64,000 nt of DNA, from NCBI RefSeq assembly GCF_030384885.1, contig NZ_CP128613.1. One strand, 5' to 3'. Below the pieces are notes generated by a model. That model saw only the letters and a program-made list of their open reading frames with translations, ran no database searches and was not told the origin of the DNA. The DNA comes from Escherichia coli (GTDB taxonomy: Bacteria; Pseudomonadota; Gammaproteobacteria; Enterobacterales; Enterobacteriaceae). A program made the translations under genes and the position numbers. Shown piece after piece: positions 2,347-16,860 of this stretch; position 1 is the first letter of the stretch, and every line of letters starts with the position of its first letter.

Positions 2347-3114
2347 TTATTGTTTTATTATCTTAACGTGCGCCGTTCCTCCATTGACTTTTTCGAAATC
2401 TTGGAACAAGGCAGGGGCATCTTGAGTTACAATATCGTAAAGTTTTTCTGAAACTGTTCTCATTTCATAGTCACCCTGTATTGCTCCTCTCATTTCGAAG
2501 AAGTGTCGAATTGCGCGAGCATTTGCTGTGACGATTATTTTTGTCTCGGTTGCATTAGGCAATATAGAGCGAGAAGCGCTTCTTAAGGCCCGCATTTTTT
2601 CTTTTTTGTTCTCATACGATTGGTTTTCACGGATTTTTTTCAAGGATTGCTTATAAAAATCCAGACTACTTTCAATATGTTGGCACCATGACTTAAACAA
2701 TTCTGGGTCATTTTTTACTTCTATAGGGGCTACGAATTCAGCATCGGATTCATCATGATACTGTTGGGATAACTGGCTATATGAAAAACCAGCTCTATGC
2801 CGAACTAGCTGGTGTGTAAATGCACGAGATACCCCAGTAATTAAAAAGGTCCAGTTCAAATGTTCTAAGACACTTTCATGCCCTTGAATAATTAAATTGT
2901 TGATATATTGACTTGTAGTCCGTGGAGACTGCTTATCCTCTCCAAAAGACATATAACATAGCCTGCCAGCGGCCTCTACCAGAAGCTCAGCTTCGGTCGC
3001 CTGCCCTTTGCGAACCCATTGCAATGATGATGTGTTTAAAAAATCATCAAAAACATTACTTTCAAATGAAGGGTGTGATATGCATTTTACTGATAAATCA
3101 GAGATTTTTATCAT
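2347..3114 (-). CDS. ThyX-like flavin-dependent thymidylate synthase homolog (divergent)
   Basis: 255 aa. Contains EHLNWTF...HQLVRHRAGFSYSQLSQQY, matching the ThyX signature (RHR followed by a conserved Ser) as recalled from Thermotoga ThyX, plus an N-terminal AAGRLCYMSF block. It has a one-residue insertion after RHR and Gln where the SxRY Arg is expected. Start codon lies 2 nt after the upstream gene's stop; SD gggag. Confidence 0.7.
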   Translation of the reverse strand: MIKISDLSVKCISHPSFESNVFDDFLNTSSLQWVRKGQATEAELLVEAAGRLCYMSFGEDKQSPRTTSQYINNLIIQGHESVLEHLNWTFLITGVSRAFTHQLVRHRAGFSYSQLSQQYHDESDAEFVAPIEVKNDPELFKSWCQHIESSLDFYKQSLKKIRENQSYENKKEKMRALRSASRSILPNATETKIIVTANARAIRHFFEMRGAIQGDYEMRTVSEKLYDIVTQDAPALFQDFEKVNGGTAHVKIIKQ

Positions 3115-3116
3115 TT

Positions 3117-3902
3117 TTACTCCCGTATAGCTTTTGGGGTGCTTACTTTAGCATCAACCTTTGGTTCGTTTGATTTAGCATTTTTTAGTAATTCAACGGT
3201 GCTTTTTAGGCTATTTATTTCATTTTGTTGAACTTTTATTGTTAATTCAAGATCTTTTGTACTACTGACATTACTGGATACTATTTGAAATAAGAAAGGA
3301 ATTGCTAGGGTTATCAACGTTAGCATTAAGGCTGCTATCGCAATTATAAAGCCAGTTTTTTTCGCAATGATTTTATTGATTTCTTTCGGAAGTCGTTTAT
3401 CAAGTCCTGCAAAATCCTTTCCCATTCTAGAAAGTTGATCATCATCCAATTTATTTACGATTTTTCCTTGGTAACCTTTAGTCGGTATTATTGTTTTAAA
3501 TAATAACATTCGGGCTACTGCTGAATTTTGTGTCAATGAGAATGGTTCTTTTGACATATTTACAAGATATATTGAAATTATGCCATTATATCCAGGGTCA
3601 ATATGCCCTGGATTCGTCATGATAATTCCATTTTTTGATAGTGTGTTTCTTGGAAATATTACACCAGCTAAATTTTTTGCAAGTTGGAATTTTTCATTTA
3701 ACTCTAATATTACAGTTTCCCCTGGCATCAGGATATGGTTGTTACGTGTTTTTTTATTGTCTTGACAGTCTGGTATATGTATTGTTTTTACAGAGAGATC
3801 AATGCTTGCAGATTGAACTTTAAATGTTCCATTTAATACCGTTAATGGATCAAAAATGTTGCCTCGCTGAATTTCATCATTGATTTCTATTTCAGACAGC
3901 AT
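3117..3902 (-). CDS. dCTP deaminase/dUTPase-fold protein with C-terminal transmembrane helix and coiled-coil tail
   Basis: 261 aa. N-terminal ~140 aa carry Dcd-family motifs (SIDLSV; LMPGETVILE; GHIDPGYNGIISIYLVN; LTQNSAVARMLLF), comparable to the E. coli Dcd IDPGW-G region. The C-terminal ~110 aa contain a 22-residue hydrophobic segment (GFIIAIAALMLTLITLAIPFLF) followed by a heptad-like polar stretch. Confidence 0.7.
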   Translation of the reverse strand: MLSEIEINDEIQRGNIFDPLTVLNGTFKVQSASIDLSVKTIHIPDCQDNKKTRNNHILMPGETVILELNEKFQLAKNLAGVIFPRNTLSKNGIIMTNPGHIDPGYNGIISIYLVNMSKEPFSLTQNSAVARMLLFKTIIPTKGYQGKIVNKLDDDQLSRMGKDFAGLDKRLPKEINKIIAKKTGFIIAIAALMLTLITLAIPFLFQIVSSNVSSTKDLELTIKVQQNEINSLKSTVELLKNAKSNEPKVDAKVSTPKAIRE

Positions 3903-3928: not shown

Positions 3929-4942
3929 TTATAAATTAGCCAGAGGGTTTTTTATTACTGCATCTTCAAGATGCTCTGGGGAAAAATGTGCATAAATCAT
4001 AGTCATTTTTATATCAGAGTGGCCTAAAATATCTCGTAAAACCAAAATATTACCACCATTCATCATAAAATGGCTGGCGAATGTATGGCGCAGAACGTGA
4101 GTGCATTGGCCCTCTGGTAACTCAATGTCAGCTCGCTTTACTGCTCGTTCAAAGGCTTTTCTGCAAGGAGTGAATAACTTCCCTCTGTTCTTAGGGAGTT
4201 CGTCATACAGATCCTGAGATATCGGCACGGTACGGTTTTTCTTGCCCTTAGTCTTGGTATAGGTGATCCGGTATTTCGATAACTGATGGCCCTGCAGATT
4301 TTCGGCTTCACTCCAGCGCGCGCCGGTGGCCAGGCATATTTTTGTAATTAAAAGTAGACTGGGGCTTTGAGAATCAGCACAGGCATCCAGCAGACGTTTA
4401 ATTTCTTCCGGGGTCAGGAACGACAGTTCACCCTCAGCAATTTTAAATGTTGGCAGCCCGGCAAGCGGATTGGGGGCTGACCAGTGGCCCAACTTTTTCA
4501 GTGTGCCAAAAACAGATGATAGGTTGCGCTGTTCAAGGTTTACAGTGCGGGGCTTAACGGGCGACATAAGCGTGCCCTCTTCATTTCGCACTTCACCTTT
4601 TAGCCGCGCTTCTCGGTATTTAGTAAAATCACCGGCTGTCAGCTCTGAGGCGATGGGATCGCCTAGACCATTACAGATAATTCTAAGTTTCGCCATGAGG
4701 CGCTTGGGGTCTGCGAGTGTTTGACCATACAGGGAATACCACTGCTCAATTAATTCTGATAGGTGTCGCCGATCTTCCTTTTCCCCCAGCCATGGCTTTT
4801 TGTTCACTTCTTCCATTGTGAAGCTTTCAAAAGCAATGGCTTCGCCTTTCGTAGCAAATTGCTTACGCACGCGCTTGCCATTGCGTCCATGGGGATAGCA
4901 CTCGCACAACCATTTACCGTTTGGCTGTTTTCTGACAGTCAT
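3929..4942 (-). CDS. int: Phage integrase, tyrosine recombinase (P2/186-type)
   Basis: 337 aa. Catalytic residues in conserved context: ATGARWSE (Arg), HVLRHTF (His-x-x-Arg), MIYAHF (Tyr). Directly downstream of the cI-like gene as in the coliphage 186 lysogeny operon. Confidence 0.85.
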   Translation of the reverse strand: MTVRKQPNGKWLCECYPHGRNGKRVRKQFATKGEAIAFESFTMEEVNKKPWLGEKEDRRHLSELIEQWYSLYGQTLADPKRLMAKLRIICNGLGDPIASELTAGDFTKYREARLKGEVRNEEGTLMSPVKPRTVNLEQRNLSSVFGTLKKLGHWSAPNPLAGLPTFKIAEGELSFLTPEEIKRLLDACADSQSPSLLLITKICLATGARWSEAENLQGHQLSKYRITYTKTKGKKNRTVPISQDLYDELPKNRGKLFTPCRKAFERAVKRADIELPEGQCTHVLRHTFASHFMMNGGNILVLRDILGHSDIKMTMIYAHFSPEHLEDAVIKNPLANL

Positions 4943-4944
4943 GT

Positions 4945-5577
4945 TTAGATACTCTTTATTACTTTGACTGCACGCCCAATAACTTCCACATCATCAGTAG
5001 AGCACTCGAAAGACGCTTCATCTTGATTTACTACAATCTTATTGCCGGGAATCCGCATGATTTTTGCAACAATAATCATTCCATCAATATTGATAAGCCA
5101 GAATCCATTGCTGACCTGTTTAATTGATTTATCGATGAGATAACAATTAGTAGGGGTTTCTAAGAACATCAATTCTTCATAATCTGCAGGTAATATGCTG
5201 TGGTCTAGGAAAATCTCTTCATCAATACTGAGTTGTCCATTCTCCAGGGTTCCTTTAGGAATAGCTGGAGTTATGAGTTTGGATAACGGTTTAATTGCTT
5301 GTTTGTTCTCATTATGAGAACTTTTCTCAGGCTCAGCTCCTCCTTTCATGCTTCCCTGTCCTGTAGCTAACCAAAGCAACGAAACACCGGTTTCTAGTGC
5401 GCACTGAATTATCCAGTCAGCAGGAAAGCTGTCACGTAACACTCTGTTTGCCATAGTGCTTTTTGAGACATTCAGGTGCTCGCTTAATGCCTGCTTAGTT
5501 GTGAATCCATAAGCCTCAAGCAGCCTTTCAATAGCTGCCTTACCTCCCGTATCGGAACCCATTCTGATGTTTAACAT
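4945..5577 (-). CDS. cI: Phage CI-type repressor (186 cI-like)
   Basis: N-terminal HTH region (LEAYGF...CALETGVSLLWLATGQG) resembles the coliphage 186 CI N-terminal domain; divergent from the apl-like gene. Confidence 0.65.
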   Translation of the reverse strand: MLNIRMGSDTGGKAAIERLLEAYGFTTKQALSEHLNVSKSTMANRVLRDSFPADWIIQCALETGVSLLWLATGQGSMKGGAEPEKSSHNENKQAIKPLSKLITPAIPKGTLENGQLSIDEEIFLDHSILPADYEELMFLETPTNCYLIDKSIKQVSNGFWLINIDGMIIVAKIMRIPGNKIVVNQDEASFECSTDDVEVIGRAVKVIKSI

Positions 5578-5698
5578 TGGTGATCTCCATTTGACAATCT
5601 TGAATCAAGATCGTAATGTCTTCATGTCTCTTGATGTGAGAGTTTAAGAGACGGGCTAAAACGAACTAACACGCACACAAAGTAAGAGATACTGCACT

Positions 5699-5941
5699 AT
5701 GAGTACTGATATTTCAATTCGTGTACCAAAAGAGATGGCTACGCCTGCAGAGTTCGCAGAGTGGGAGGGTATTTCCCGCGGCTCTGTTTACCAAAAAATT
5801 CACCATGGTCAACTTGCTAAGTACATGGTCAAGAAAGAAAAAAACAAAGGCCGCGTAAGCCTGCGTTATCTGATGTACAAAACCGATCAGGTCCGTGAAT
5901 CCCTCGGTCATTCCAACTTCCGCGTCATTGTTGGTAAGTAA
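5699..5941 (+). CDS. Apl/Cox-like small DNA-binding protein (excisionase/early repressor)
   Basis: 80-aa basic protein, first gene of the rightward early operon divergent from cI, by synteny with 186 apl / P2 cox. Confidence 0.5.
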   Translation: MSTDISIRVPKEMATPAEFAEWEGISRGSVYQKIHHGQLAKYMVKKEKNKGRVSLRYLMYKTDQVRESLGHSNFRVIVGK

Positions 5942-5973
5942 GTTCAATTATGGGAACTTTCTAAGGGGGCACC

Positions 5974-6483
5974 ATGTTTGATTACAAGATTTCCAAACAT
6001 CCGCATTTCGATGAAGCCTGTAGGGCTTTTGCACTGCGCCACAACCTGGTGCAACTGGCAGAACGTGCAGGCATGAATGTGCAGATTCTGCGGAACAAGC
6101 TGAACCCAGCTCAACCTCATTTATTAACTGCACCAGAAATCTGGTTGCTTACCGATCTGACTGAAGATTCAACGCTGGTAGATGGTTTTCTGGCTCAGAT
6201 TCACTGCCTGCCATGTGTACCGATTAATGAGGTGGCAAAAGAGAAACTGCCACATTACGTCATGAGTGCAACCGCAGAGATCGGGCGTGTCGCGGCAGGT
6301 GCGGTTTCTGGCGATGTAAAAACCAGTGCAGGCCGTCGTGATGCGATCAGCAGCATTAACTCTGTTACACGACTGATGGCGCTGGCTGCTGTTTCATTGC
6401 AGGCCCGTTTACAGGCTAATCCTGCGATGGCGAGTGCGGTTGATACCGTGACTGGCCTCGGTGCTTCATTCGGTTTGCTGTGA
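5974..6483 (+). CDS. cII: CII-like lysogeny establishment regulator (186-type)
   Basis: 169 aa, positioned after the apl-like gene; size and position match 186 CII as recalled. Confidence 0.5.
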
Positions 6484-6490
6484 GGTGCTT

Positions 6491-6787
6491 ATGCTGATGA
6501 AAGAACCATCATTTGCATCGCTCCTGGTAAAACAAAGTCCGGCAATGCACTACGGTCACGGCTGGATCATGGGTGAGGATGGTAAACGCTGGCATCCGTA
6601 CCGTTCACAAGATGAATTGCTGTCTGAATTGACCACGAGGAAACGGAGAAAGTCCAAATGTATGCGGCAGAAAATAAAGTGGTTTATCACTTTCGTTACA
6701 GAGGGGAGAATTATTCAGTACCTGAAGATGATTTGCTCTGTTGCTATCCGTCGTTGTCGGGCGATGGTAGCTACTTTTTCACGCTAA
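6491..6787 (+). CDS. Hypothetical prophage early protein
   Basis: ORF with SD gaggtg 4 nt upstream of ATG at 6491; overlaps the next ORF out of frame, so one of the two may be spurious. Confidence 0.3.
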   Translation: MLMKEPSFASLLVKQSPAMHYGHGWIMGEDGKRWHPYRSQDELLSELTTRKRRKSKCMRQKIKWFITFVTEGRIIQYLKMICSVAIRRCRAMVATFSR

Positions 6788-6882
6788 AGGATGGAACCTT
6801 TATACGTGGTGAAAAAGTACAAGAAGTGATGCGTATAAAGACATCACCTCTTGAACGTTATCGGCGAAATATTTATCGGTAA
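6658..6882 (+). CDS. Hypothetical prophage early protein
   Basis: 74-aa ORF with SD ggag upstream. Confidence 0.35.
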   Translation: MYAAENKVVYHFRYRGENYSVPEDDLLCCYPSLSGDGSYFFTLKDGTFIRGEKVQEVMRIKTSPLERYRRNIYR

Positions 6883-7121
6883 CGATCTATCAGTGTCTGT
6901 ATCAGATGAGTGAATTCTTGTTGTTTAACCGAACCTAAAGGAAGTTTGTTTAATTCTTCGCGGAGGAGCTCAAAAAATGCTGATTGATTTGCTGAGTCAG
7001 TTCGAAATAAGGAGTGGATCAGACCTGAAACAAGAATTCGTTGAACAGCAACCTCATCGCGAAGACTGGAGATCTCGTTTTCAAGTTGCTCTATACGCTC
7101 TCTTTCAACCGGGTTCAACAT
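6873..7121 (-). CDS. Hypothetical small coiled-coil protein, antisense to the early operon
   Basis: 82-aa ORF with heptad-like ERIEQLENEISSLRDEVAVQR; its orientation is opposite to the surrounding early genes. Confidence 0.3.
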   Translation of the reverse strand: MLNPVERERIEQLENEISSLRDEVAVQRILVSGLIHSLFRTDSANQSAFFELLREELNKLPLGSVKQQEFTHLIQTLIDRYR

Positions 7122-7202
7122 TGATGATTCCTTCTAGCTATCAATATGTTGGTAATGGATCATATCAAAAATTTTTTAGTAGATGTGTTGTGGGATGCAT
7201 AA

Positions 7203-7544
7203 ATGGCTATTGAAGGCACTGCGGCGACTGTTCCATTAAGCCCCGGTGAACGCCTGAATGGACTTAATCACATTGCGGAGTTAAGGGCGAAAGTTTTTGG
7301 CCTGAATATTGAGTCAGAGCTTGAGCGGTTTATTAAAGATATGCGTGATTCACGGGATATTAATAGCGAACAAAATAAACGGGCACTGGCTGCCATATTC
7401 TTTATGGCAAAAATTCCAGCTGAACGTCATAGCATCAGCATTAATGAGCTGACCACTGACGAAAAGCGGGAGTTGATTAAAGCAATGAATCATTTTCGTG
7501 CAGTGGTGAGCTTATTTCCCAGACGGCTAACCATGCCGAATTAA
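7203..7544 (+). CDS. Hypothetical prophage early protein
   Basis: 113-aa ORF in the early operon. Confidence 0.4.
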   Translation: MAIEGTAATVPLSPGERLNGLNHIAELRAKVFGLNIESELERFIKDMRDSRDINSEQNKRALAAIFFMAKIPAERHSISINELTTDEKRELIKAMNHFRAVVSLFPRRLTMPN

Positions 7545-7611
7545 CCAACTAATGAAATTAATGGCGTAAACCCGCCGGGCATCCCTTTATCTAAATTCAG
7601 GAGAATTGATT

Positions 7612-7845
7612 ATGCGTAATATTGAAACCCTCTCGACCAAAACCGGACCGGATGACGCAGGGCTTAATATTTTACTGACAGAGGCTCGTCTGGAAGAACG
7701 CCGGGCAAGGGCTGAAGCAATGGCAGCTCGCCTTGATAGCCTGGCGTGTCATATCACATCCCGCCAGCTAACCCACGTCGAAGCGGCAGAACTGCTTCGT
7801 GTGACTGCTGAAGCAATCCAGAACGAAGCGCAGGAGATCCACTGA
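7612..7845 (+). CDS. Hypothetical prophage early protein
   Basis: ATG at 7612 preceded by SD aggaga; 77 aa. Confidence 0.4.
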   Translation: MRNIETLSTKTGPDDAGLNILLTEARLEERRARAEAMAARLDSLACHITSRQLTHVEAAELLRVTAEAIQNEAQEIH

Positions 7846-8072
7846 TGGCTGATGCAATGGATCTCGTACAGCAGCGCGTTGAAGAAGAACGCCAACGCCA
7901 TATCCGTGCTGCCCGTGCCAAAACGCCGGGCGTGTCCCGCGTGCTTTGCATTGAGTGTGAAGCGCCAATTCCGCCAGCACGCCGCCGTGCCATTCCGGGT
8001 GTGCAGCTTTGCATTACCTGTCAGGAAATCGCAGAGCTGAAAGGCAAACATTACAACGGAGGTGCTGTATGA
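7845..8072 (+). CDS. TraR/DksA-family C4 zinc-finger protein (phage)
   Basis: CIECEAPIPPARRRAIPGVQLCITC: two CxxC pairs with the spacing typical of TraR/DksA zinc fingers, common in P2/186-like early regions. Confidence 0.65.
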   Translation: MADAMDLVQQRVEEERQRHIRAARAKTPGVSRVLCIECEAPIPPARRRAIPGVQLCITCQEIAELKGKHYNGGAV

Positions 8073-8926
8073 GCACCATCCTGAAATGGGCGGGAAATAA
8101 AACTGCCATAATGTCCGAACTGAAAAAACATCTTCCTGCTGGCCCGCGACTGGTTGAACCTTTCGCGGGTTCCTGTGCTGTGATGATGGAGACGGATTAT
8201 CCCAGCTATCTGGTTGCGGATATTAATCCTGATTTAATCAACCTCTATAAAAAGGTTGCCGCTGATTGTGAATCGTTTATATCTCGCGCCAGAGTTTTAT
8301 TTGAGATCGCAAACAGGGAGGTGGCTTATTACAACATAAGGCAGGAGTTTAATTACTCAACTGAAATTACTGATTTCATGAAAGCGGTATATTTCCTGTA
8401 TCTCAATCGTCACGGTTACCGTGGTTTATGTCGCTATAACAAGAGCGGGCATTTCAACATTCCCTACGGTAATTATAAAAATCCGTATTTCCCTGAAAAA
8501 GAAATTCGCGCATTTGCAGAAAAGGCCCAGCGAGCAACGTTTATCTGCGCCAGCTTTGATGAAACGCTGGCGATGTTGAAGGCGGGGGATGTGGTGTATT
8601 GCGATCCGCCGTATGACGGTACGTTTTCCGGCTATCACACTGACGGCTTCACTGAAGATGACCAGTATCACCTGGCATCTGTTCTTGAACATCGGTCATC
8701 AGAAGGACATCCGGTCATTGTTTCTAACAGTGACACATCCCTGATCCGTTCGCTGTATCGCAATTTTACTCACCACTACATCAAGGCAAAACGCAGCATC
8801 GGTGTGGCAGCTGGCGAGGGTAAATCAGCAACAGAAATCATTGCTGTTTCCGGGCCGCGCTGCTGGGTGGGATTTGATTATTCGCGTGGCGTGGATAGTT
8901 CTGCCGTGTACGGAGTACGTGCATGA
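8069..8926 (+). CDS. dam: DNA adenine methyltransferase (Dam-like, phage-encoded)
   Basis: N-terminal [11 protein letters not shown]...EPFAGS (AdoMet-binding motif) and the catalytic DPPY motif (VYCDPPYDG); start overlaps the stop of the upstream ORF. Confidence 0.8.
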
Positions 8927-11337
8927 GTCATGCCGATATGAACAACTGCTGCGGCTTTAACGAAGCTGCCGCATCGTTCTCATGGAACAGCCCGAAAAAG
9001 GCCATTAACCCTTATCTGGACCCGGCGGAAGTTGCGCCGGTTTCTGCGCTTTCAAACCTGATCACTCTGTACGCTACTGATAACGAGCAGGAACAACTGC
9101 GCCGCGAGGCACTGAGTGATCAGGTCTGGGAGCGTTATTTCTTTAATGAATCCCGTGATCCTGTCCAACGCGAAATGGAGCAGGATAAGCTCATTAGCCG
9201 GGCAAAGATGGCGCATGAGCAGCAGCGTTTTAATCCAGACATGGTCATTCTGACTGACGTCAACGCCCAGCCTTCCCATATCAGCAAGCCGCTGATGCAA
9301 CGTATTGAATATTTCAGCAGCCTGGGCAGGCCAAAGGCTTATTCCCGCTATTTGCGTGAGACGATTAAGCCATGTCTGGAACGACTGGAGCATGTACGCG
9401 ACAGCCAGCTATCTGCATCTTTTCGTTTTATGGCAAGCCATGAAGGGCTGGACGGTCTGCTGATCCTGCCTGAAATGAGTCAGGATCAGGTGAAACGCCT
9501 GTCTACCCTTGTCGCTGCGCATATGAGCATGTGTCTTGATGCCGCTTGTGGTGATTTGTACGCCTCCGATGATGTTAAGCCAGAAGAAATCCGCAAGACA
9601 TGGGAAAAGGTGGCTGCAGAAACCCTGCGACTGGATGTCATACCGCCTGCGTTTGAGCAACTCCGCCGGAAAAGAAACCGCCGCAAACCTGTGCCTTATG
9701 AACTCATTCCGGGTTCGCTGGCGCGTATGCTGTGCGCCGACTGGTGGTATCGGAAATTATGGAAGATACGTTGCGAATGGCGGGAAGAGCAGTTGCGTGC
9801 TGTCTGCCTGGTCAGCAAAAAAGCATCTCCCTATGTCAGCTATGAAGCCGTGATGCATAAACGTGAGCAGCGCCGTAAGTCGCTGGAGTTTTTCCGTTCT
9901 CATGAACTGGTGAACGAAGACGGCGACACGCTGAACATGGAGGATGTGGTAAACACCAGCAGCAGCAACCCGGCGCATCGCCGCAACGAGATGATGGCCT
10001 GTGTTAAAGGCCTAGAGCTTATCGCGGAAATGCGTGGTGACTGCGCCGTTTTCTACACCATCACCTGTCCGTCACGTTTCCATTCCACGCTAAATAACGG
10101 CAGGCCAAACCCGACCTGGACCAACGCGACAGTAAGACAAAGCAGCGATTATCTGGTCGGCATGTTTGCTGCATTTCGTAAGGCTATGCACAAAGCCGGG
10201 TTGCGCTGGTATGGCGTGCGGGTGGCTGAGCCGCATCATGACGGCACAGTTCACTGGCACCTGTTGTGTTTCATGCGCAAAAAAGACCGCCGCGCCATTA
10301 CTGCATTGTTGCGTAAGTTTGCCATCCGTGAAGACCGCGAGGAGCTGGGCAATAACACGGGGCCACGCTTTAAGTCTGAGCTGATAAACCCGCGCAAAGG
10401 AACGCCGACAAGCTACATTGCGAAATATATCAGTAAGAATATTGACGGGCGTGGTCTGGCTGGCGAGATCAGTAAGGAAACGGGTAAATCCCTGCGTGAT
10501 AACGCTGAATACGTTAATGCCTGGGCGTCTCTGCATCGTGTTCAGCAATTCCGCTTCTTTGGCATTCCGGGGCGTCAGGCTTACCGTGAACTGCGATTGC
10601 TGGCTGGTCAGGCGGCAAGGCAACAGGGTGACAAAAAAGCAGGTGCGCCGGTACTGGATAACCCGCGCCTTGATGCCATCCTGGCTGCTGCTGATGCTGG
10701 TTGTTTTGCCTCCTACATCATGAAGCAGGGCGGCGTACTGGTTCCCCGCAAATATCACCTCATCAGAACCGCTTATGAAATCAACGAAGAGCCGACCGCC
10801 TATGGCGATCACGGTATTCGTATTTATGGCATCTGGTCACCCATTGCAGAGGGCAAGATCTGCACTCATGCAGTGAAGTGGAAAATGGTTCGTAAGGCCG
10901 TTGACGTTCAGGAGGCGGCAGCCGACCAGGGCGCTTGCGCCCCTTGGACTCGTGGCAATAACTGTCCCCTTGCTGAAAATTTGAACCAACAGGAGAAAGA
11001 TAAATCAGCTGATGGGGACACCAGAACGGACATTACCCGCATGGATGACAAGGAGTTGCACGATTACCTGCACAGTATGAGCAAAAAAGAGCGCCGGGAA
11101 CTGGCTGCAAGGTTACGCCAGGTGAAACCGAAACGGCGTAAAGACTACAAACAGCGAATTACAGACCATCAGCGACAGCAGCTCGTCTATGAACTGAAGT
11201 CCAGGGGATTTGATGGCAGTGAGAAAGAAGTCGATTTGCTCCTTCGCGGTGGCAGTATTCCGTCAGGAGCAGGCCTGCGTATTTTCTATCGGAACCAGCG
11301 TCTGAAGGAAGATGATAAGTGGCGGAACCTGTATTAA
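8923..11337 (+). CDS. Phage replication initiation protein (P2 gpA-like rolling-circle endonuclease)
   Basis: 804 aa. HUH-type motif VHWHLLCF and active-site Tyr block [12 protein letters not shown], as in P2/186 gene A. Confidence 0.8.
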
Positions 11338-11429
11338 TTACGCGGGTTAACAATTCGTGCCCTTAATAATACCAGGCATATCAGGCTGATGAATGTAAAA
11401 AAACGTTTTACATCAGTAAGATTATTATA

Positions 11430-11449
11430 TACTGTAAATATAAACAGTG
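11430..11449 (+). promoter_or_regulatory. LexA (SOS) box upstream of small ORF plus dinI-like gene
   Basis: tactgtaaatataaacagtg: CTGT-N8-ACAG with an AT-rich spacer, ~40 nt upstream of the ATG at 11490. Confidence 0.65.
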
Positions 11450-11489
11450 GTTATCTATACAGTATTGCTTTGGTGTCATAGGAGGAAAG

Positions 11490-11678
11490 ATGCAGGACTA
11501 TTTTTTGGAGTCTTTGAAGCTCCAGCGCATTGATTTTTTTCTTAAGCTTGTAGCGGCTAGTGAGTGTAGTGATGAAGAGAAGGGGCTGGCTCTGCAGTGG
11601 GTTTCTGAACTGACAGATGAACTCATGGCAAAAATCAGAACCCACGAATACAACCGCTCAATGGATGTCATCAGCTGA
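11490..11678 (+). CDS. Hypothetical SOS-regulated small protein (possible Tum-like antirepressor position)
   Basis: 62-aa ORF with SD aggagg, immediately downstream of the LexA box; position analogous to 186 tum, but no recognised sequence similarity. Confidence 0.4.
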   Translation: MQDYFLESLKLQRIDFFLKLVAASECSDEEKGLALQWVSELTDELMAKIRTHEYNRSMDVIS

Positions 11679-11688
11679 GGTGACTTTT

Positions 11689-11922
11689 ATGCGCATTGAA
11701 ATAATGATCGATAAAGAGCAGAAGATTAGCCAGTCTACCCTGGACGCCCTTGAATCCGAGCTTTACCGCAATCTGCGCCCCCTGTATCCCAAAACGGTAA
11801 TCCGTATCCGTAAAGGTAGCTCTAACGGTGTGGAACTGACCGGACTGCAACTGGACGAAGAAAGAAAACAAGTGATGAAAATTATGCAGAAGGTGTGGGA
11901 AGACGACAGCTGGCTGCATTGA
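11689..11922 (+). CDS. DinI-family protein
   Basis: 77 aa, MRIEIMIDK...LDALESEL...KVWEDDSWL parallels E. coli DinI (MRIEVTIAK...IDALAGEL...ETWESADDWF). Confidence 0.7.
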   Translation: MRIEIMIDKEQKISQSTLDALESELYRNLRPLYPKTVIRIRKGSSNGVELTGLQLDEERKQVMKIMQKVWEDDSWLH

Positions 11923-12035
11923 TTTTGTCAATAGACGCTTGTTTTTACTAATCAAAAAGGGTTACATATGAGTGAGAGGCGATGTCAATCAGATATCGCC
12001 TTGTTTTTTGTCAAGAAAAGAATAATAGGCTAAAA

Positions 12036-12713
12036 ATGAAAATTAATAATGTAGCGTTACCAATATCTCTTGCTGTAATCCTAACTGGTTGCGTGCCACA
12101 TGCTTCTAACCGAAATATCACTGCTATTGAAGTGGTGAAGCCTGCTATTGGGCAAAGTGCTACCGCCTACATGGGCGATCCCATTATCACATCTGCTACT
12201 GGATTTAAAACGGACGTACTAGAACTTGGTGCGGCTAATGGTGCATTGTCTTCTATCGCTGCTGGTACATATTGCAGTGAGGGGAATGGAATTTACCGCA
12301 ATTATCATAACCCTCAAGCTGTTGCGTTAAAAAATCTCTATGGGCAAATCGGTAACTATGTTGATTATGTTAGTTACGATGCTGCAAAAAATGAGATATC
12401 ACCGCCAAATGGTACTTCTTATACTGCATCAGAAATTTCTATCAAACGTGTTCCTGATGGGCTGTGTCGAGTTAGTAACTCATTGGTTAAGACTATCGAA
12501 TACAATGGAAATGCAGGCGGTGTAATGAAGTTCACCTATCGTGAATTTGCAAACGATATGGCTCGTGCAGCATTTACAACAGATTTTTCTGTAGATTCTA
12601 AGGGAAGTGACGTTATCGCTTACAAAGGTGCCAAGTTCAAAGTGAACAAGGCTGATAACTCGTCTATTTCTTATACAATTATTTCTGGCTTTGACAAGGC
12701 TGTCACGTTCTAG
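12036..12713 (+). CDS. Prophage-encoded lipoprotein (moron)
   Basis: Signal peptide MKINNVALPISLAVILTGC with lipobox LTGC; the remainder is Ser/Thr/Asn-rich with no recognised domain. Confidence 0.6.
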   Translation: MKINNVALPISLAVILTGCVPHASNRNITAIEVVKPAIGQSATAYMGDPIITSATGFKTDVLELGAANGALSSIAAGTYCSEGNGIYRNYHNPQAVALKNLYGQIGNYVDYVSYDAAKNEISPPNGTSYTASEISIKRVPDGLCRVSNSLVKTIEYNGNAGGVMKFTYREFANDMARAAFTTDFSVDSKGSDVIAYKGAKFKVNKADNSSISYTIISGFDKAVTF

Positions 12714-12805
12714 GTTTCACGCTTACTGAGTATGTTACGATTTTGCACATTCTGCATAAACGCGCATGTCTATGCTGCATGAGATCGCATGATCGTTTGA
12801 GGATC

Positions 12806-12833
12806 TTTTGTGTTAAGGCCCGCCAGTTCTGGC
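12806..12833 (+). terminator. Rho-independent terminator after lipoprotein gene
   Basis: GC-rich stem gcccgcc/ggcgggc followed by tttt. Confidence 0.6.
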
Positions 12834-13038
12834 GGGCTTTTGCGTAGATCATGCAGGTGCATGAAAACCACTACATAAAGCGGGCAGGCGTGGCGGGGAT
12901 ACGAGCGCGCGTTATGACAAATAGATGATTAGCCTGATTTATTCACAGCTGTATAAATGATCACCTTGTAATTAGGTAAGTAATGTCTTCTATTATCATT
13001 GATTTGATAGGATTAATCTGTTTTTTGAGGATTAGAGG

Positions 13039-15375
13039 ATGATTGAAGAGGTAGTTATTGACAAAGTAGGCTCATATAATGGCCCTACTCAGCTTTTACA
13101 TGGGCTTTCTAAATTTAACTATTTATATGGAGCTAATGGTGCAGGTAAAACAACTATAAGTAAAATTATTAATGACCCTGAACAATATCCAACATGTCCG
13201 ATTAAATGGAAAAATAATATATCTTTAATAAGCTACGTATATAATAAAGATTTTGTTGAAAGAAATTTTAGTCAAGATAAAATTAAAGGTGTATTTACCC
13301 TTGGTAGCGATCTTAAGGAGGATGAAGAGAAATTAATATCTCTTGAAGAAGAAAAAAATAAGCTAATAGAATCTATTATAGCAAAGGAAAAGCTAATAGA
13401 TGGTGGTGATAATATATTAGGCGTTGTTAAACAAATCGAAGACCATGAAAAATCTTTTAAAGATTCATGTTGGAAGCAAAAAGTAAAACATGATAATGTG
13501 TTCTCAAAGGCTTTTGAGGGATTAAGGAATAGTAGTGAAAAATTTAAAGCTAGAGTGTTGGCTGAGTATGAAAATAACACATCAGAAGTTTGCTCAATAG
13601 CAGAGCTAATTGAGAAAGCAAAAATTGTTTTTTCTACTGAATTGACATCACATGTATCAATTACAATTCCATCCTTCAATGGGATAGATGATATTTTGAG
13701 TAGGGAGATTTGGAGTGAGCGTATTCTAGGGAAAAAAGACGTTAGTGTTTCAGACTTAATTACAATGCTCAATAACAGTGATTGGGTTAAGGAAGGTTTA
13801 ACATATTTCAGTAAATCTAATCCCAAGTGCCCATTCTGCCAGCAGGATGTAAATGATAATATATTTGATAATCTATCATCATATTTTGATAAAACATATG
13901 AGTTAAAAAAAAGAGAAATCGATGCATTGGTTTTACAATATGAACATCAACTTAATAATATCTTGCAGGCGATAGATGATATAAGGGCGATTAAATCTCC
14001 ATTCATAAATTATGAAGTGTTTGAGGATAAGGCTAAGATAGTATTATCTGAATTAAACAAGAATTTTGAATTGGCAAAAAATAAACGCAATTTTTTAAGT
14101 GAATCAGTTCATTTTAGTGACTTAAGTGAAGTTGTTGATGATTTTATTTCTTTTTTGAATGATTCAAATCTATTGATAGATAATAATAACAAAATACACA
14201 GTAATAGAAAGGTAGAGGCTAGTAATCTTTCTAATCAGATATGGGCATATATCGTAAAGGTGGAGTTAAAGTCTGAAATAACTTCTTACCGTAGCGAATC
14301 TGATAAATTTAATAGGAAGTTACAAGGGCTTAAATCTGGGTTAGAGGAAGACAAAAAGAAGTTAATGTTAAATGCTTCGGCTATTGAGGCAATTGAGTCT
14401 AATAAAACCAGTACTCTTCCAACTATTACAAAAATTAACAAGATTCTGGATTCTTATGGCTTCAAAAATTTTTACTTAAAACCCTCCGAAGATAAAAAGC
14501 ATTATATGATAGTGAGAGATAGTGGAGATAATGCTCGTACAACCCTTAGCGAGGGAGAAAAGACATTTATCACTTTTTTGTATTTTTATAGCCTTGTTAG
14601 AGGGAGTGATAATGCATCAGGTGTTTTAGATGATCGTGTTGTAGTATTTGATGATCCAATTTCAAGTTTAGATAGTGATATTCTGTTTATTGTAAGTTCG
14701 TTGATTAAAGATTTAATGGAGGATGTTCGTAAGGATGAAGGAAATATTAAGCAAATTATATTCCTTACACATAATATTTATTTTCATAAAGAGTTGACTT
14801 TTAATACTAAAAGATCCGGTAATCAAGCAATGAAAGAGGAGACTTTTTGGATTGTAAGGAAAAAAGGGAAGGTCTCATATCTTGAAAAGTGCGAATCAAA
14901 CCCAATAAAAACGTCTTATGATTTGCTCTGGTGCGAATTGAGAAGAACAGATATTAATAATAATACTATACAAAATACAATGCGAAGGATTTTGGAGAAT
15001 TACTTTAAGATATTAGGTGGGATGGATATTAGGAAGCTTGAATGTCATTTTTATGGTGATGAAAAAATCATATTTAAATCTTTAGTGTCATGGATTAATG
15101 ATGGTTCTCATTTTGCAGGTGATGATCTTTATATGAATTTAGATACGGAGTCTGTGCAAAAATATTTAATTGTTTTTCAGAAGATATTTGAGTGTAGTGA
15201 GCATACTGCCCATTACAAAATGATGATGGGTGAGTTTTATAGACCGTTAAATGAGTCACTTCATCTACAAGATGAGTTTGATATTGATGATAGTGCGAAT
15301 GATGAGTATGCTTCGTCAAAAATTGAGATAGAAGATGGAATAAACACATCTCTACATAGTAATACATATTTGTAA
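13039..15375 (+). CDS. RloC/PrrC-like ATPase with CxxC zinc hook (putative anticodon nuclease / abortive-infection protein)
   Basis: 778 aa, very AT-rich. N-terminal Walker A GANGAGKTT; long coiled-coil region containing CPFC; D-loop/Walker B-like VVVFDDPISSLDSD; C-terminal region with RRILENYF and downstream His residues, reminiscent of the PrrC/RloC Arg-Glu-His nuclease motif as recalled. Confidence 0.55.
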   Translation: MIEEVVIDKVGSYNGPTQLLHGLSKFNYLYGANGAGKTTISKIINDPEQYPTCPIKWKNNISLISYVYNKDFVERNFSQDKIKGVFTLGSDLKEDEEKLISLEEEKNKLIESIIAKEKLIDGGDNILGVVKQIEDHEKSFKDSCWKQKVKHDNVFSKAFEGLRNSSEKFKARVLAEYENNTSEVCSIAELIEKAKIVFSTELTSHVSITIPSFNGIDDILSREIWSERILGKKDVSVSDLITMLNNSDWVKEGLTYFSKSNPKCPFCQQDVNDNIFDNLSSYFDKTYELKKREIDALVLQYEHQLNNILQAIDDIRAIKSPFINYEVFEDKAKIVLSELNKNFELAKNKRNFLSESVHFSDLSEVVDDFISFLNDSNLLIDNNNKIHSNRKVEASNLSNQIWAYIVKVELKSEITSYRSESDKFNRKLQGLKSGLEEDKKKLMLNASAIEAIESNKTSTLPTITKINKILDSYGFKNFYLKPSEDKKHYMIVRDSGDNARTTLSEGEKTFITFLYFYSLVRGSDNASGVLDDRVVVFDDPISSLDSDILFIVSSLIKDLMEDVRKDEGNIKQIIFLTHNIYFHKELTFNTKRSGNQAMKEETFWIVRKKGKVSYLEKCESNPIKTSYDLLWCELRRTDINNNTIQNTMRRILENYFKILGGMDIRKLECHFYGDEKIIFKSLVSWINDGSHFAGDDLYMNLDTESVQKYLIVFQKIFECSEHTAHYKMMMGEFYRPLNESLHLQDEFDIDDSANDEYASSKIEIEDGINTSLHSNTYL

Positions 15376-15382
15376 TTTTATT

Positions 15383-15413
15383 GCAATTGCCAGTAGCAAC
15401 AATACGGTACTGG
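15383..15413. terminator. Bidirectional hairpin between convergent ATPase and portal-fragment genes
   Basis: 9-bp perfect inverted repeat ttgccagta...tactggcaa. Confidence 0.4.
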
Positions 15414-15424
15414 CAACTAATATT

Positions 15425-15964
15425 TTAGTTAAGCTCATATGGAGAAAATTCTATAAGTTTCTCCCCGAGCCATGCGTTTATTTCCATAAATCGTTTTTGC
15501 AAAGGAATTAATTCATTTATCACAAAAACCTTACTAGCCTTCTCCACATCCCCAAACCCCCCAACATTATTAGGCATTATCCCCATCATTTGCGGCGGCA
15601 CACGGTGTGCCGCCATCATGTCGTCCCGGCTCACGTTCTTGATATTCAGAAACTCATCCTTCGCCGCGACTTCTGACAACGGGATAATCTGAAGCCCGTC
15701 CTTTTTGCCGTTAGGAGAGTACATAAACAGGTTGCGGAAGTTGCCTGGCCCTTTGGCACTTTTCATTGCGTTGCGGAGGTTGTTCACATCTTCTTGGTTC
15801 TGTGCGGCATCGGTCATGTACATGATGAAACCTGCATGGCTGCCGTTGATGTAATACTTACGGCGGAACAGTGTGGCGGACTCGTTGAGCAGGGCTGACG
15901 GGATGGCAGAGAGATAACCTGGCAGGCCGTAGATCTCCTGGTTGATGTCCGGTTCCGCCCTTAA
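15425..15964 (-). pseudogene. Phage portal-like (P2 gpQ-like) gene fragment, 5'-truncated
   Basis: The reading frame stays open upstream of the first Met to ~15964 and then hits a stop with no start. Orientation and position (leftward, after the replication/cargo region) match P2 Q; the family assignment is from synteny and is tentative. Confidence 0.4.
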
Positions 15965-16153
15965 TCATCTCAACCATGCGTTACAGCTCGATCCCCGCTG
16001 TGGCGTGAAAAAAGACAAACAGCAGCTGGAGCGCAGACTGCGCAATGACAGCCGCTGACAGAACGTGCCCCCGCGCACGGGCGGCACGGGGTGGCGAAAG
16101 GCACAGCCACATCAAAACCCCGTCCACCGCCCTTTATTTCAGGAGAAAGCAGC

Positions 16154-16354
16154 ATGAAGTTTGTTGCGCCAGAACAGGCACCGGAACAGGCGGAAATCAT
16201 CAGAAACACGCCGTTCTGGCCTGATGTGGACCTGTCGGAGTTTCGCAGTGTCATGCGCACTGACGGCACGGTGACGCAGCCGCGTTTAAAGCAGGTTGCG
16301 CTGTCGGCAATTTCGGAGGTCAACGCACCGATACGACCATTTGCATTGATGTAA
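16154..16354 (+). pseudogene. Phage head-completion-like (P2 gpL-like) N-terminal fragment
   Basis: 66-aa ORF with SD aggaga; IIRNTPFWPDVD...PRLKQ...ISEVNA resembles my recollection of the P2 gpL N-terminus; truncated relative to ~170 aa. Confidence 0.3.
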
Positions 16355-16497
16355 ACAAAGTGAAGTTCTTCCATGTGAAACCTCTTTGCATGATTTCAAG
16401 ATGGCGACAGGCAAGATGGACGCAAAAGTCTGTCGCCATTTTGCCGCCACTACCAAAGAAAAAGGGGCTACGCTTTCACGTAACCCCTTGATTTATT

Positions 16498-16860
16498 TGG
16501 TGGAGCTGGCGGGAGTTGAACCCGCGTCCGAAATTCCTACATCCTCGGTACTACATGCTTAGTCAGTCTTTACATTCGCTTGCCAGCTGCGGACGGACAC
16601 GCCACTAACAAACTAGCCTGATTAAGTTTTAACGCTTCAACCCCAGGCAGGGCTTCCACGCGATCTCTTTTGGGTTTGACCTCTCTTGATCCCCGTCCTA
16701 AGAGCGGAGGCTAGGGAGAGAGGGCTCTAAGCAGGTTATTAAGCTGCTAAAGCGTAGTTTTCGTCGTTTGCGACTATTTTTTGCGGCTTTTTACGAGGCC
16801 AACCGCCCCTCGGCATGCACCTTGGGTTTCGCAAATCCCGTCGAATCCAGAATCAGCCCC
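16498..16860 (-). ncRNA. ssrA: tmRNA (SsrA)
   Basis: The reverse complement reads ggggctgattctggattcgacggg...gttcaactcccgccagctccacca, the E. coli tmRNA sequence, 363 nt. Confidence 0.95.

Follow-up and report, generated by a model that had tools for sequence, protein, structure and literature searches.

What does a lipoprotein gene carried by a P2-like prophage remnant do for the element that carries it, or for the cell in which that element resides? This question is raised by the open reading frame (ORF) at positions 12036-12713 of a stretch of Escherichia coli DNA of 64,000 nucleotides (contig NZ_CP128613.1 of assembly GCF_030384885.1), the whole of which is referred to here as the window. 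An earlier note on this DNA had described the product as a prophage lipoprotein of no recognisable domain and had likened it to Llp and Cor, phage lipoproteins that act in superinfection exclusion (SE) by masking outer-membrane receptors. Our tentative answer is that the protein is an envelope-level exclusion or protection factor, acting alone, that hinders the entry of competing phages; we regard this as a real possibility that falls short of an even chance. The theme of a phage-borne envelope lipoprotein is a familiar one, here carried by an uncharacterised family, and the functional case is circumstantial.

The lipoprotein gene lies on the plus strand, starts at ATG 12036 and ends with the TAG stop codon at 12711-12713, giving 225 codons plus the stop. 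The N-terminus of the product, MKINNVALPISLAVILTGC, has a Lys in its n-region, a hydrophobic core and the lipobox L-T-G-C ending at Cys19, i.e. a positively charged n-region and a hydrophobic core followed by a lipobox of the pattern [LVI][ASTVI][GAS]C. The signal peptide is encoded by 12036-12092 (plus strand), with the Cys19 codon at 12090-12092, and Cys19 is invariant across the family alignment of 68 members. The position of the ORF and its classical lipobox signal peptide were therefore as the earlier note had given them. Among 174 retrieved relatives, many of which are fragments, 129 have a lipobox within their first 45 residues. Judged by its sequence, the 225-residue protein is an exported lipoprotein processed by Sec and LspA, with a mature part of 22.0 kDa and 207 residues including the lipidated Cys. 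Under the Lol sorting rule of E. coli, lipoproteins in which residue +2 is other than Asp are sent to the outer membrane; because residue +2 is Val here, the protein is predicted to be anchored in the inner leaflet of the outer membrane, facing the periplasm. The mature protein had also been called rich in Ser, Thr and Asn, which is true only mildly, since these three residues make up 24.2% of it and the commonest residue is Ala, not any of the three.

Some records annotate the gene from an alternative start, ATG 11982, which would add 18 residues to give a protein of 243 residues. This codon lies inside the 5' arm of a hairpin described below and the relatives align from the Met encoded at 12036, and we therefore prefer the start at 12036.

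Searches for a recognisable domain returned zero matches in Pfam, NCBIfam and PADLOC, as the earlier note would have it, though they revealed a full-length match to a profile of phage proteins: residues 1-223 align with positions 1-230 of PHROG 1353, annotated as 'unknown function', at E 3.1e-105. No Pfam family was found at E ≤ 1 either for the protein itself or for any of the 68 family members, and sequence-profile searches of NCBIfam and the PDB yielded only TrwH, at E 0.09 and at the level of the signal peptide. The models of PADLOC-DB v2 gave zero matches for the lipoprotein or for three of its relatives (P0060, P0014 and P0130), and a fourth relative (P0122) reached only a chance-level E of 0.005; this database reportedly includes the systems of Vassallo et al. 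2022, one of which has a lipoprotein. No paralogue of the lipoprotein was detected within the 64-kb window. In the literature we found no study of function, nor any assay of protection from phage, for STM2726, WP_000700647 or EcHS_A0921, and a 2026 preprint on P2 and P4 leaves lipoproteins unmentioned.

The family itself is large. An HMMER scan of 1.84 billion cluster representatives returned 1456 family clusters at E ≤ 1e-3, most of them with 210-240 residues, the count being one of clusters at 50% identity (about 1500). Named members come from Vibrio, Shewanella, Neptunomonas, Methylotuvimicrobium, Acinetobacter, Sphingopyxis, Brevundimonas and many enterobacteria, and the distant relatives P0060 and P0122 also match PHROG 1353, with the Vibrio and Neptunomonas proteins doing so strongly. 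By these profile matches PHROG 1353 is a very large uncharacterised family that includes this lipoprotein, STM2726 of the Salmonella prophage Fels-2 and E. coli WP_000700647. Comparison with orthologues of 79-97% protein identity gave dN/dS values of 0.03-0.07 for the gene, which together with the 1456 family clusters places it far from a chance ORF. The lipoprotein gene is thus intact and selectively maintained under strong purifying selection.

The AlphaFold model of the protein is confident, with a helix at residues 7-15, inside the signal peptide, and from it we infer that the mature lipoprotein is a 22-kDa all-beta domain; no convincing structural relative of the model was detected. The distribution of Cys residues agrees with an exported fold. 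The pair C80/C144 is found together in 21 of 22 sequences and the pair C122/C128 in 48 of 48, and the number of Cys is even and non-zero in 59 of the 68 mature family proteins. Covariation in pairs is what one would expect of disulfide-forming Cys in an exported protein, and a Cys80-Cys144 disulfide probably stabilises the fold.

Conservation along the chain is uneven. It is highest in a C-terminal module (residues 146-221, encoded by 12471-12698, plus strand), where column conservation reaches 0.52-0.64 over residues 151-220, compared with about 0.3 over residues 61-150. The conserved positions there are Y168-R169-E170-F171, R177, D187, Y196-K197-G198-A199, Y213 and F219, and the same residues are retained in hosts ranging from Vibrio to Sphingopyxis. 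Conservation is moderate over residues 31-60 (P36, G47), and residues 61-150 are variable. Relatives of 340-380 residues keep both ends and have an enlarged middle, and no Pfam domains were found in them; when the C-terminal module was used as a search profile, the matches were mostly fragments, again free of Pfam domains. A conserved N-terminal strand segment and a C-terminal module of about 70 residues therefore appear to frame a variable middle, an arrangement that would suit a scaffold with a specificity region.

The distribution of the gene shows it to be cargo. It was found in 49 of 5426 complete E. coli genomes, as against 1071 of 5426 for the adjacent DinI-like gene (11689-11922, plus strand; Pfam DinI at 1.3e-22), a TumB-like gene that belongs to the backbone of this phage lineage. 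Its GC content is 40.7%, that of gpA 52.8% and that of the AAA_13 ATPase gene on its other side 30.6%; the latter gene (Pfam AAA_13 at 5.8e-164) and the DinI-like gene are the flanking genes that had been claimed. The lipoprotein DNA is 98.7-100% identical across P2-like elements of E. coli, Klebsiella and Salmonella, and proteins that are 99-100% identical are encoded by Fels-2, Salmonella phage RE2010 and many Klebsiella P2-like phages, the RefSeq entry WP_000700647 being identical. The gene also occurs in 47 IMG/VR viral contigs, and a tblastn search of 50,697 phage records found it only in P2-like phages and in Acinetobacter and Moraxella phages.

The P2-like loci examined all have the gene in one position, with the DinI-like gene on one side and the gpA-gpQ cargo slot on the other, and it is what follows the gene that changes. 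When 56 loci were compared, the stretch from the lipoprotein gene to the portal gene sorted into 32 clusters unrelated to one another, and in loci with different cargo the identity ends no more than 198 nt after the lipoprotein stop codon. The annotated downstream neighbours in P2-like loci include AIPR, PIN, a TIR pair, a retron reverse transcriptase (RT), a STAS-like trio, PDC-S06 and several hypothetical genes. The literature documents gpA-gpQ as a hotspot of anti-phage genes (PMC9122126; PMC9519451), and among the P2 hotspot loci of Rousset et al., Table S5A lists WP_000700647 as 'hypothetical' (PMC9122126). The lipoprotein gene is therefore optional single-gene cargo at the left edge of this hotspot, where it behaves as the near-invariant left neighbour of the swapping slot and not as a swapped unit.

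More distant relatives were found in quite different surroundings. The contigs of the relatives P0030 and P0027 were too short to show a context, and all of the informative contexts are mobile or variable DNA. One relative lies in a lambda-like prophage near an OLD-family nuclease, another in a Pantoea element with OLD and nSTAND3 genes, a third in an 8-kb Klebsiella island that is bounded by a serine recombinase and carries putAbiC, a fourth in a Shewanella element with a serine recombinase and a fifth beside the CI/Cro immunity region of a Neptunomonas prophage; others are at spots rich in insertion sequences (IS), and one is near the VasI gene of a type VI secretion system (T6SS). Relatives with 24-27% identity stand among the tail genes of Moraxella phage Mcat28 (L017 4974-5651) and Acinetobacter phage Ab1656-2 (L018 4091-5907), in the latter case after a DUF4258/HTH pair and just before the tape-measure gene, and these two insertions have the look of morons acquired independently. 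The relative P0060 lies in a Vibrio chromosomal integron (L014 1-14669, GCA_034929475.1) with 22 attC-like repeats in 14.7 kb, where it makes up a cassette of one ORF flanked by attC repeats. Neighbouring cassettes in this array encode an Mrr-type restriction enzyme (the next cassette), a ParE/Phd pair, a NUDIX protein, an acetyltransferase and a colicin/pyocin-immunity-like protein. Because the contexts are all mobile or variable, and include a one-ORF cassette, the function of the lipoprotein would seem to be self-contained and to have been captured repeatedly by mobile elements. The outcome named beforehand as fatal to the original idea, that the homologues are housekeeping lipoproteins of known function, was not what we found, as prophages, islands and an integron carry the relatives as uncharacterised cargo.

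We then consider how the gene is likely to be expressed. Upstream of it is an SOS-type promoter region (11408-11449, plus strand) containing a perfect LexA box, CTGTAAATATAAACAG, at 11432-11447; the motif CTGT-N8-ACAG occurs in 4 copies in the window, compared with 0.72 expected. The box stands 43 nt before an ORF of 62 residues (11490-11678, plus strand; PHROG 698, of unknown function), which stands where phages of the 186/PSP3 type have the antirepressor half of the tum unit and for which, by analogy, we infer an antirepressor role. The Fels-2 record annotates the gene after the counterpart of this ORF as TumB-like. Together, the LexA box, the 62-residue ORF and the DinI/TumB-like gene resemble the tum-type SOS induction switch of 186 and PSP3, here kept in a prophage that is incapable of making virions.

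Between the DinI-like gene and the lipoprotein gene is a hairpin followed by a U-run (11976-12012, plus strand), which resembles an intrinsic terminator in a terminator scan, has an RNA fold z-score of -3.46 and holds ATG 11982; the lipoprotein ATG is 24 nt past it. In the 94%-identical locus of E. coli NCTC11121 (L022 3441-3477) two base pairs of the hairpin differ, C-G having become U-A by compensatory change and G-U having become G-C, which suggests that the structure is maintained. Colicin lysis genes are preceded by an attenuating terminator, which this hairpin, placed just before the lipoprotein start, resembles. No convincing sigma-70 promoter was found between the hairpin and the ATG, where one scan match ends on the start codon itself. 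A GC-rich hairpin with a predicted 11-bp stem and a UUUU run (12815-12844, plus strand) forms a putative strong intrinsic terminator that closes the lipoprotein unit ahead of the next cargo. As there is a LexA box upstream and no credible promoter after the first hairpin, the lipoprotein gene is probably transcribed, at least partly, by read-through from the LexA-controlled unit. In Salmonella carrying Fels-2, the genes STM2726, STM2727 and STM2728 all rose significantly, by 2.6- to 14.8-fold, after treatment with the mutagen MX (PMC2225428), and STM2726 is the 99%-identical orthologue of the lipoprotein gene. This rise could in part reflect prophage replication rather than promoter control.

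Under the proposed role in exclusion, the lipoprotein would, after export, be lipidated at Cys19, be delivered by the Lol system to the inner leaflet of the outer membrane and fold as a disulfide-stabilised all-beta domain. Its level would rise upon DNA damage or prophage induction via read-through. It would then bind a conserved component of the periplasm or outer membrane and interfere with competing phages at adsorption or at genome delivery. This protective role is supported by the fact that the gene is constrained, that its product is exported, that it is single-gene cargo in an anti-phage hotspot, that it has a link to the SOS response and that defence genes are found near members of the family (AIPR, PIN, TIR, retron RT, PDC-S06, OLD in two unrelated elements, putAbiC and Mrr). 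The CI/Cro region next to the Neptunomonas relative and the pattern of conserved ends around a variable middle add to this case.

The protein may work like Llp, Rtp45, Cor or TraT, and comparison with these proteins shows both the appeal and the limits of the analogy. With T5 Llp, Rtp45 and Cor the lipoprotein shares its phage origin, its lipobox signal peptide, its predicted location at the periplasmic face of the outer membrane and its encoding by a single gene, and the timing that its SOS link makes possible, during lytic development, recalls that of Llp, which is made early in infection. The specific analogy of the earlier note, receptor masking in the manner of Llp and Cor, was not supported. 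In T5-like and Rtp-like phages the exclusion lipoprotein gene is linked to the gene for the receptor-binding protein, whereas no receptor-binding-protein gene is adjacent to the lipoprotein gene in the P2-like loci examined. Mature Llp and Rtp45 are small, at about 6 kDa in the case of Rtp45 (10.1101/2025.07.07.663478), whereas the lipoprotein, at about 22 kDa, is well outside a range of about 6-8 kDa. Nor is it tuned to one receptor as those proteins are, being highly conserved across hosts, and a host-specific receptor mask is disfavoured because purifying selection is strong and the same residues are conserved from Vibrio to Sphingopyxis. No similarity to any SE family was found in Pfam, in PHROG or by tblastn of phage records, and the PHROG matches were only to families of 'unknown function'.

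TraT, which confers surface exclusion and serum resistance in F-like plasmids, is likewise an outer-membrane lipoprotein of similar size borne by a mobile element, and it opposes incoming DNA by itself, at the cell surface, an action to which the one proposed here may be likened. TraT is plasmid-borne and linked to conjugation genes, whereas the family described here is found on phages, islands and integron cassettes, and no match to Pfam TraT or Lambda_Bor at E ≤ 1 was obtained for the lipoprotein or for any of its 68 relatives. By sequence, the protein is outside the families of Llp, Cor, Rtp45 and TraT. What it has in common with other gpA-gpQ cargo, such as old, tin, retrons and TIR systems, is the locus, the variable presence and the foreign base composition (PMC9122126). 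In contrast to the lipoprotein, which is exported, the known systems of this hotspot act from the cytoplasm on nucleic acids, nucleotides or membranes.

Several considerations weigh against a role in excluding phages. The tally of nearby defence genes is a raw count made without a background control, and none of Pfam, PADLOC, PHROG and the tblastn search of phage records revealed homology to any exclusion protein. Not all cargo of the hotspot is defensive, partition systems and a cytolethal distending toxin being among it, and of eight additional hotspot systems that were tested, only three protected from phage (PMC9122126). The validated systems of Vassallo et al. leave adsorption unaffected, so that they offer no precedent for an adsorption blocker. 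Purifying selection and the invariance of Y-R-E, R177 and D187 across hosts argue against the masking of a fast-evolving receptor; the invariant motif fits a conserved ligand better than a specific receptor. Finally, if the gene is mainly SOS-driven, its product would be low in a resting lysogen, which is a poor fit to lysogen protection.

A broader and bolder form of the proposal can be framed, which we consider rather doubtful as a whole. In this form, the lipoprotein would be the enterobacterial member of a widespread, structurally unprecedented family of outer-membrane lipoproteins borne by mobile elements, and this family would constitute a new single-gene class of envelope protection against phage entry or against a conserved class of envelope-attacking enzymes. 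Protection would be exerted via the C-terminal beta module (Y-R-E, R177, D187) together with a variable specificity region, and in P2-like phages it would be SOS-gated by terminator read-through.

A different explanation is that the lipoprotein serves the lytic cycle of its own phage. Made after SOS induction by read-through, it would modify the envelope of the induced cell, either preventing the re-adsorption of progeny to cells and debris, as in the 'lytic conversion' ascribed to T5 Llp, or aiding release in the way of the colicin lysis lipoproteins, which are SOS-induced from behind an attenuating terminator. The upstream LexA box, the hairpin with its compensatory substitution between the DinI-like and lipoprotein genes and the failure to detect a promoter between those two genes are all consistent with this, as are the mutagen induction of STM2726-2728 in Fels-2 (PMC2225428) and the protection from adsorption to infected cells and debris for which SE lipoproteins are described (10.1101/2025.07.07.663478). 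However, the members found in an integron cassette, on a small island and at IS-rich spots have no lytic cycle to serve, and in the window the gene is kept in a remnant that lacks any late gene. In addition, P2-like phages adsorb to the lipopolysaccharide (LPS) core and so have no protein receptor of their own to mask, and the response to mutagen could, as noted above, arise from prophage replication and not from promoter control. We consider a role in the lytic cycle unlikely.

In a second explanation, the lipoprotein is an orphan immunity protein or inhibitor directed against a conserved class of envelope-attacking enzymes delivered by competitors, e.g. bacteriocins, T6SS effectors that attack peptidoglycan or membranes, or lysozyme-type hydrolases, much like the lipoprotein inhibitors of lysozyme and the periplasmic T6SS immunity proteins. 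The protein is predicted to face the periplasm, it is encoded by a single mobile gene as orphan immunity genes are, and a charged motif that is invariant across distant hosts fits a conserved enzyme target. One relative is near T6SS VasI and a colicin/pyocin-immunity-like cassette is present in the same Vibrio array as another, but these T6SS and colicin neighbours are single, weak observations. Moreover, the lipoprotein has no similarity to a known immunity or inhibitor family, and no cognate toxin gene is adjacent to it in the loci examined. An inhibitor of this kind is improbable in our estimation.

A third explanation is that the lipoprotein is a host-interaction or fitness moron like lambda Bor or TraT, contributing to serum resistance, adhesion, vesiculation or tolerance of envelope stress without excluding phages. 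It is prophage-borne lipoprotein cargo of a size like that of TraT, it is present in prophages of clinical Klebsiella, Salmonella and E. coli, and the hotspot carries virulence cargo too (PMC9122126). Set against this, relatives are found in marine and environmental Vibrio, Neptunomonas, Methylotuvimicrobium, Shewanella and Sphingopyxis, where serum resistance is irrelevant, and the protein has no Pfam Bor or TraT match. This explanation, too, has in our judgement little probability.

The remaining explanation concerns the gene next door. The AAA_13 ATPase (13039-15375, plus strand; 778 residues) is the PADLOC candidate PDC-S06 (E 1e-266) and is independent cargo. Its sequence includes the Walker A motif GANGAGKTT, a CPFC motif in the centre and a PrrC-like C-terminal part (PADLOC PrrC at 2.5e-11 over residues 459-703), an architecture that looks like that of an RloC/PrrC-type anticodon nuclease. 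That the lipoprotein and the ATPase form a two-gene defence system, with the lipoprotein as membrane sensor or effector, might be thought from their adjacency on the same strand and from the recurrence of the pair in one metagenomic viral contig (L078), but this is extremely improbable and is effectively refuted by distribution: among the matches listed, about 20 E. coli genomes have the ATPase without the lipoprotein, the lipoprotein stands before all 32 of the downstream clusters, a terminator and 325 bp separate the genes, their GC contents differ (40.7% versus 30.6%) and PDC-S06 is a single-gene PADLOC candidate. Since the ATPase occurs alone and the downstream cargo varies, we treat the lipoprotein and the ATPase as separate modules and rejected a partnership between them.

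The earlier note was right to call the gene prophage-encoded in that the host element is Fels-2/P2-like, but only a remnant of the prophage is left. The remnant occupies 3929-16860 of the window, at ssrA, and retains the integrase (3929-4942), the CI repressor, a CII-like gene, gpA (8923-11337) and both cargo genes, as well as a gene at 8009-8926 predicted from the annotation of similar loci to encode a DNA adenine methylase. All of the late genes are gone, and the portal gene gpQ, which marks the right edge of both the hotspot and the remnant, is cut to 131 residues beside ssrA (15425-15823, minus strand; a partial Pfam Phage_portal match below the family cut-off, together with record annotations). 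The tmRNA gene itself (16498-16860), the ssrA site, follows the portal fragment. The flanking chromosome is that of E. coli, with 95-100% identity to 5425 genomes, and E. coli 2013C-4282, which is identical in the flanking recN region, has another island at the same ssrA site (L080).

Beyond the integrase, on the minus strand, are a ThyX-type thymidylate synthase gene (2347-3114) and a dCTP-deaminase/dUTPase-like gene (3117-3902). Neither gave a PADLOC match, and the two may be nucleotide-metabolism cargo or a defence of the nucleotide-depletion type. Further out, at 117-1979 on the plus strand, is an autotransporter ORF (AIDA stalk, pertactin, beta-domain) with a TTG start that looks N-terminally truncated.

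Most newly found anti-phage cargo acts inside the cell, and factors that act at the envelope have been sampled too little, in part because clones with altered adsorption are thrown out of functional screens. The combination of a LexA box, a partial terminator and a lipoprotein poses a small regulatory question of its own. If the lipoprotein neither excludes phages nor neutralises envelope toxins, PHROG 1353 would stand as a well-delimited orphan family that can be tested cheaply. If it does either, the family would be a new one in surface-level immunity, with relevance to phage therapy against Klebsiella and Salmonella lysogens.

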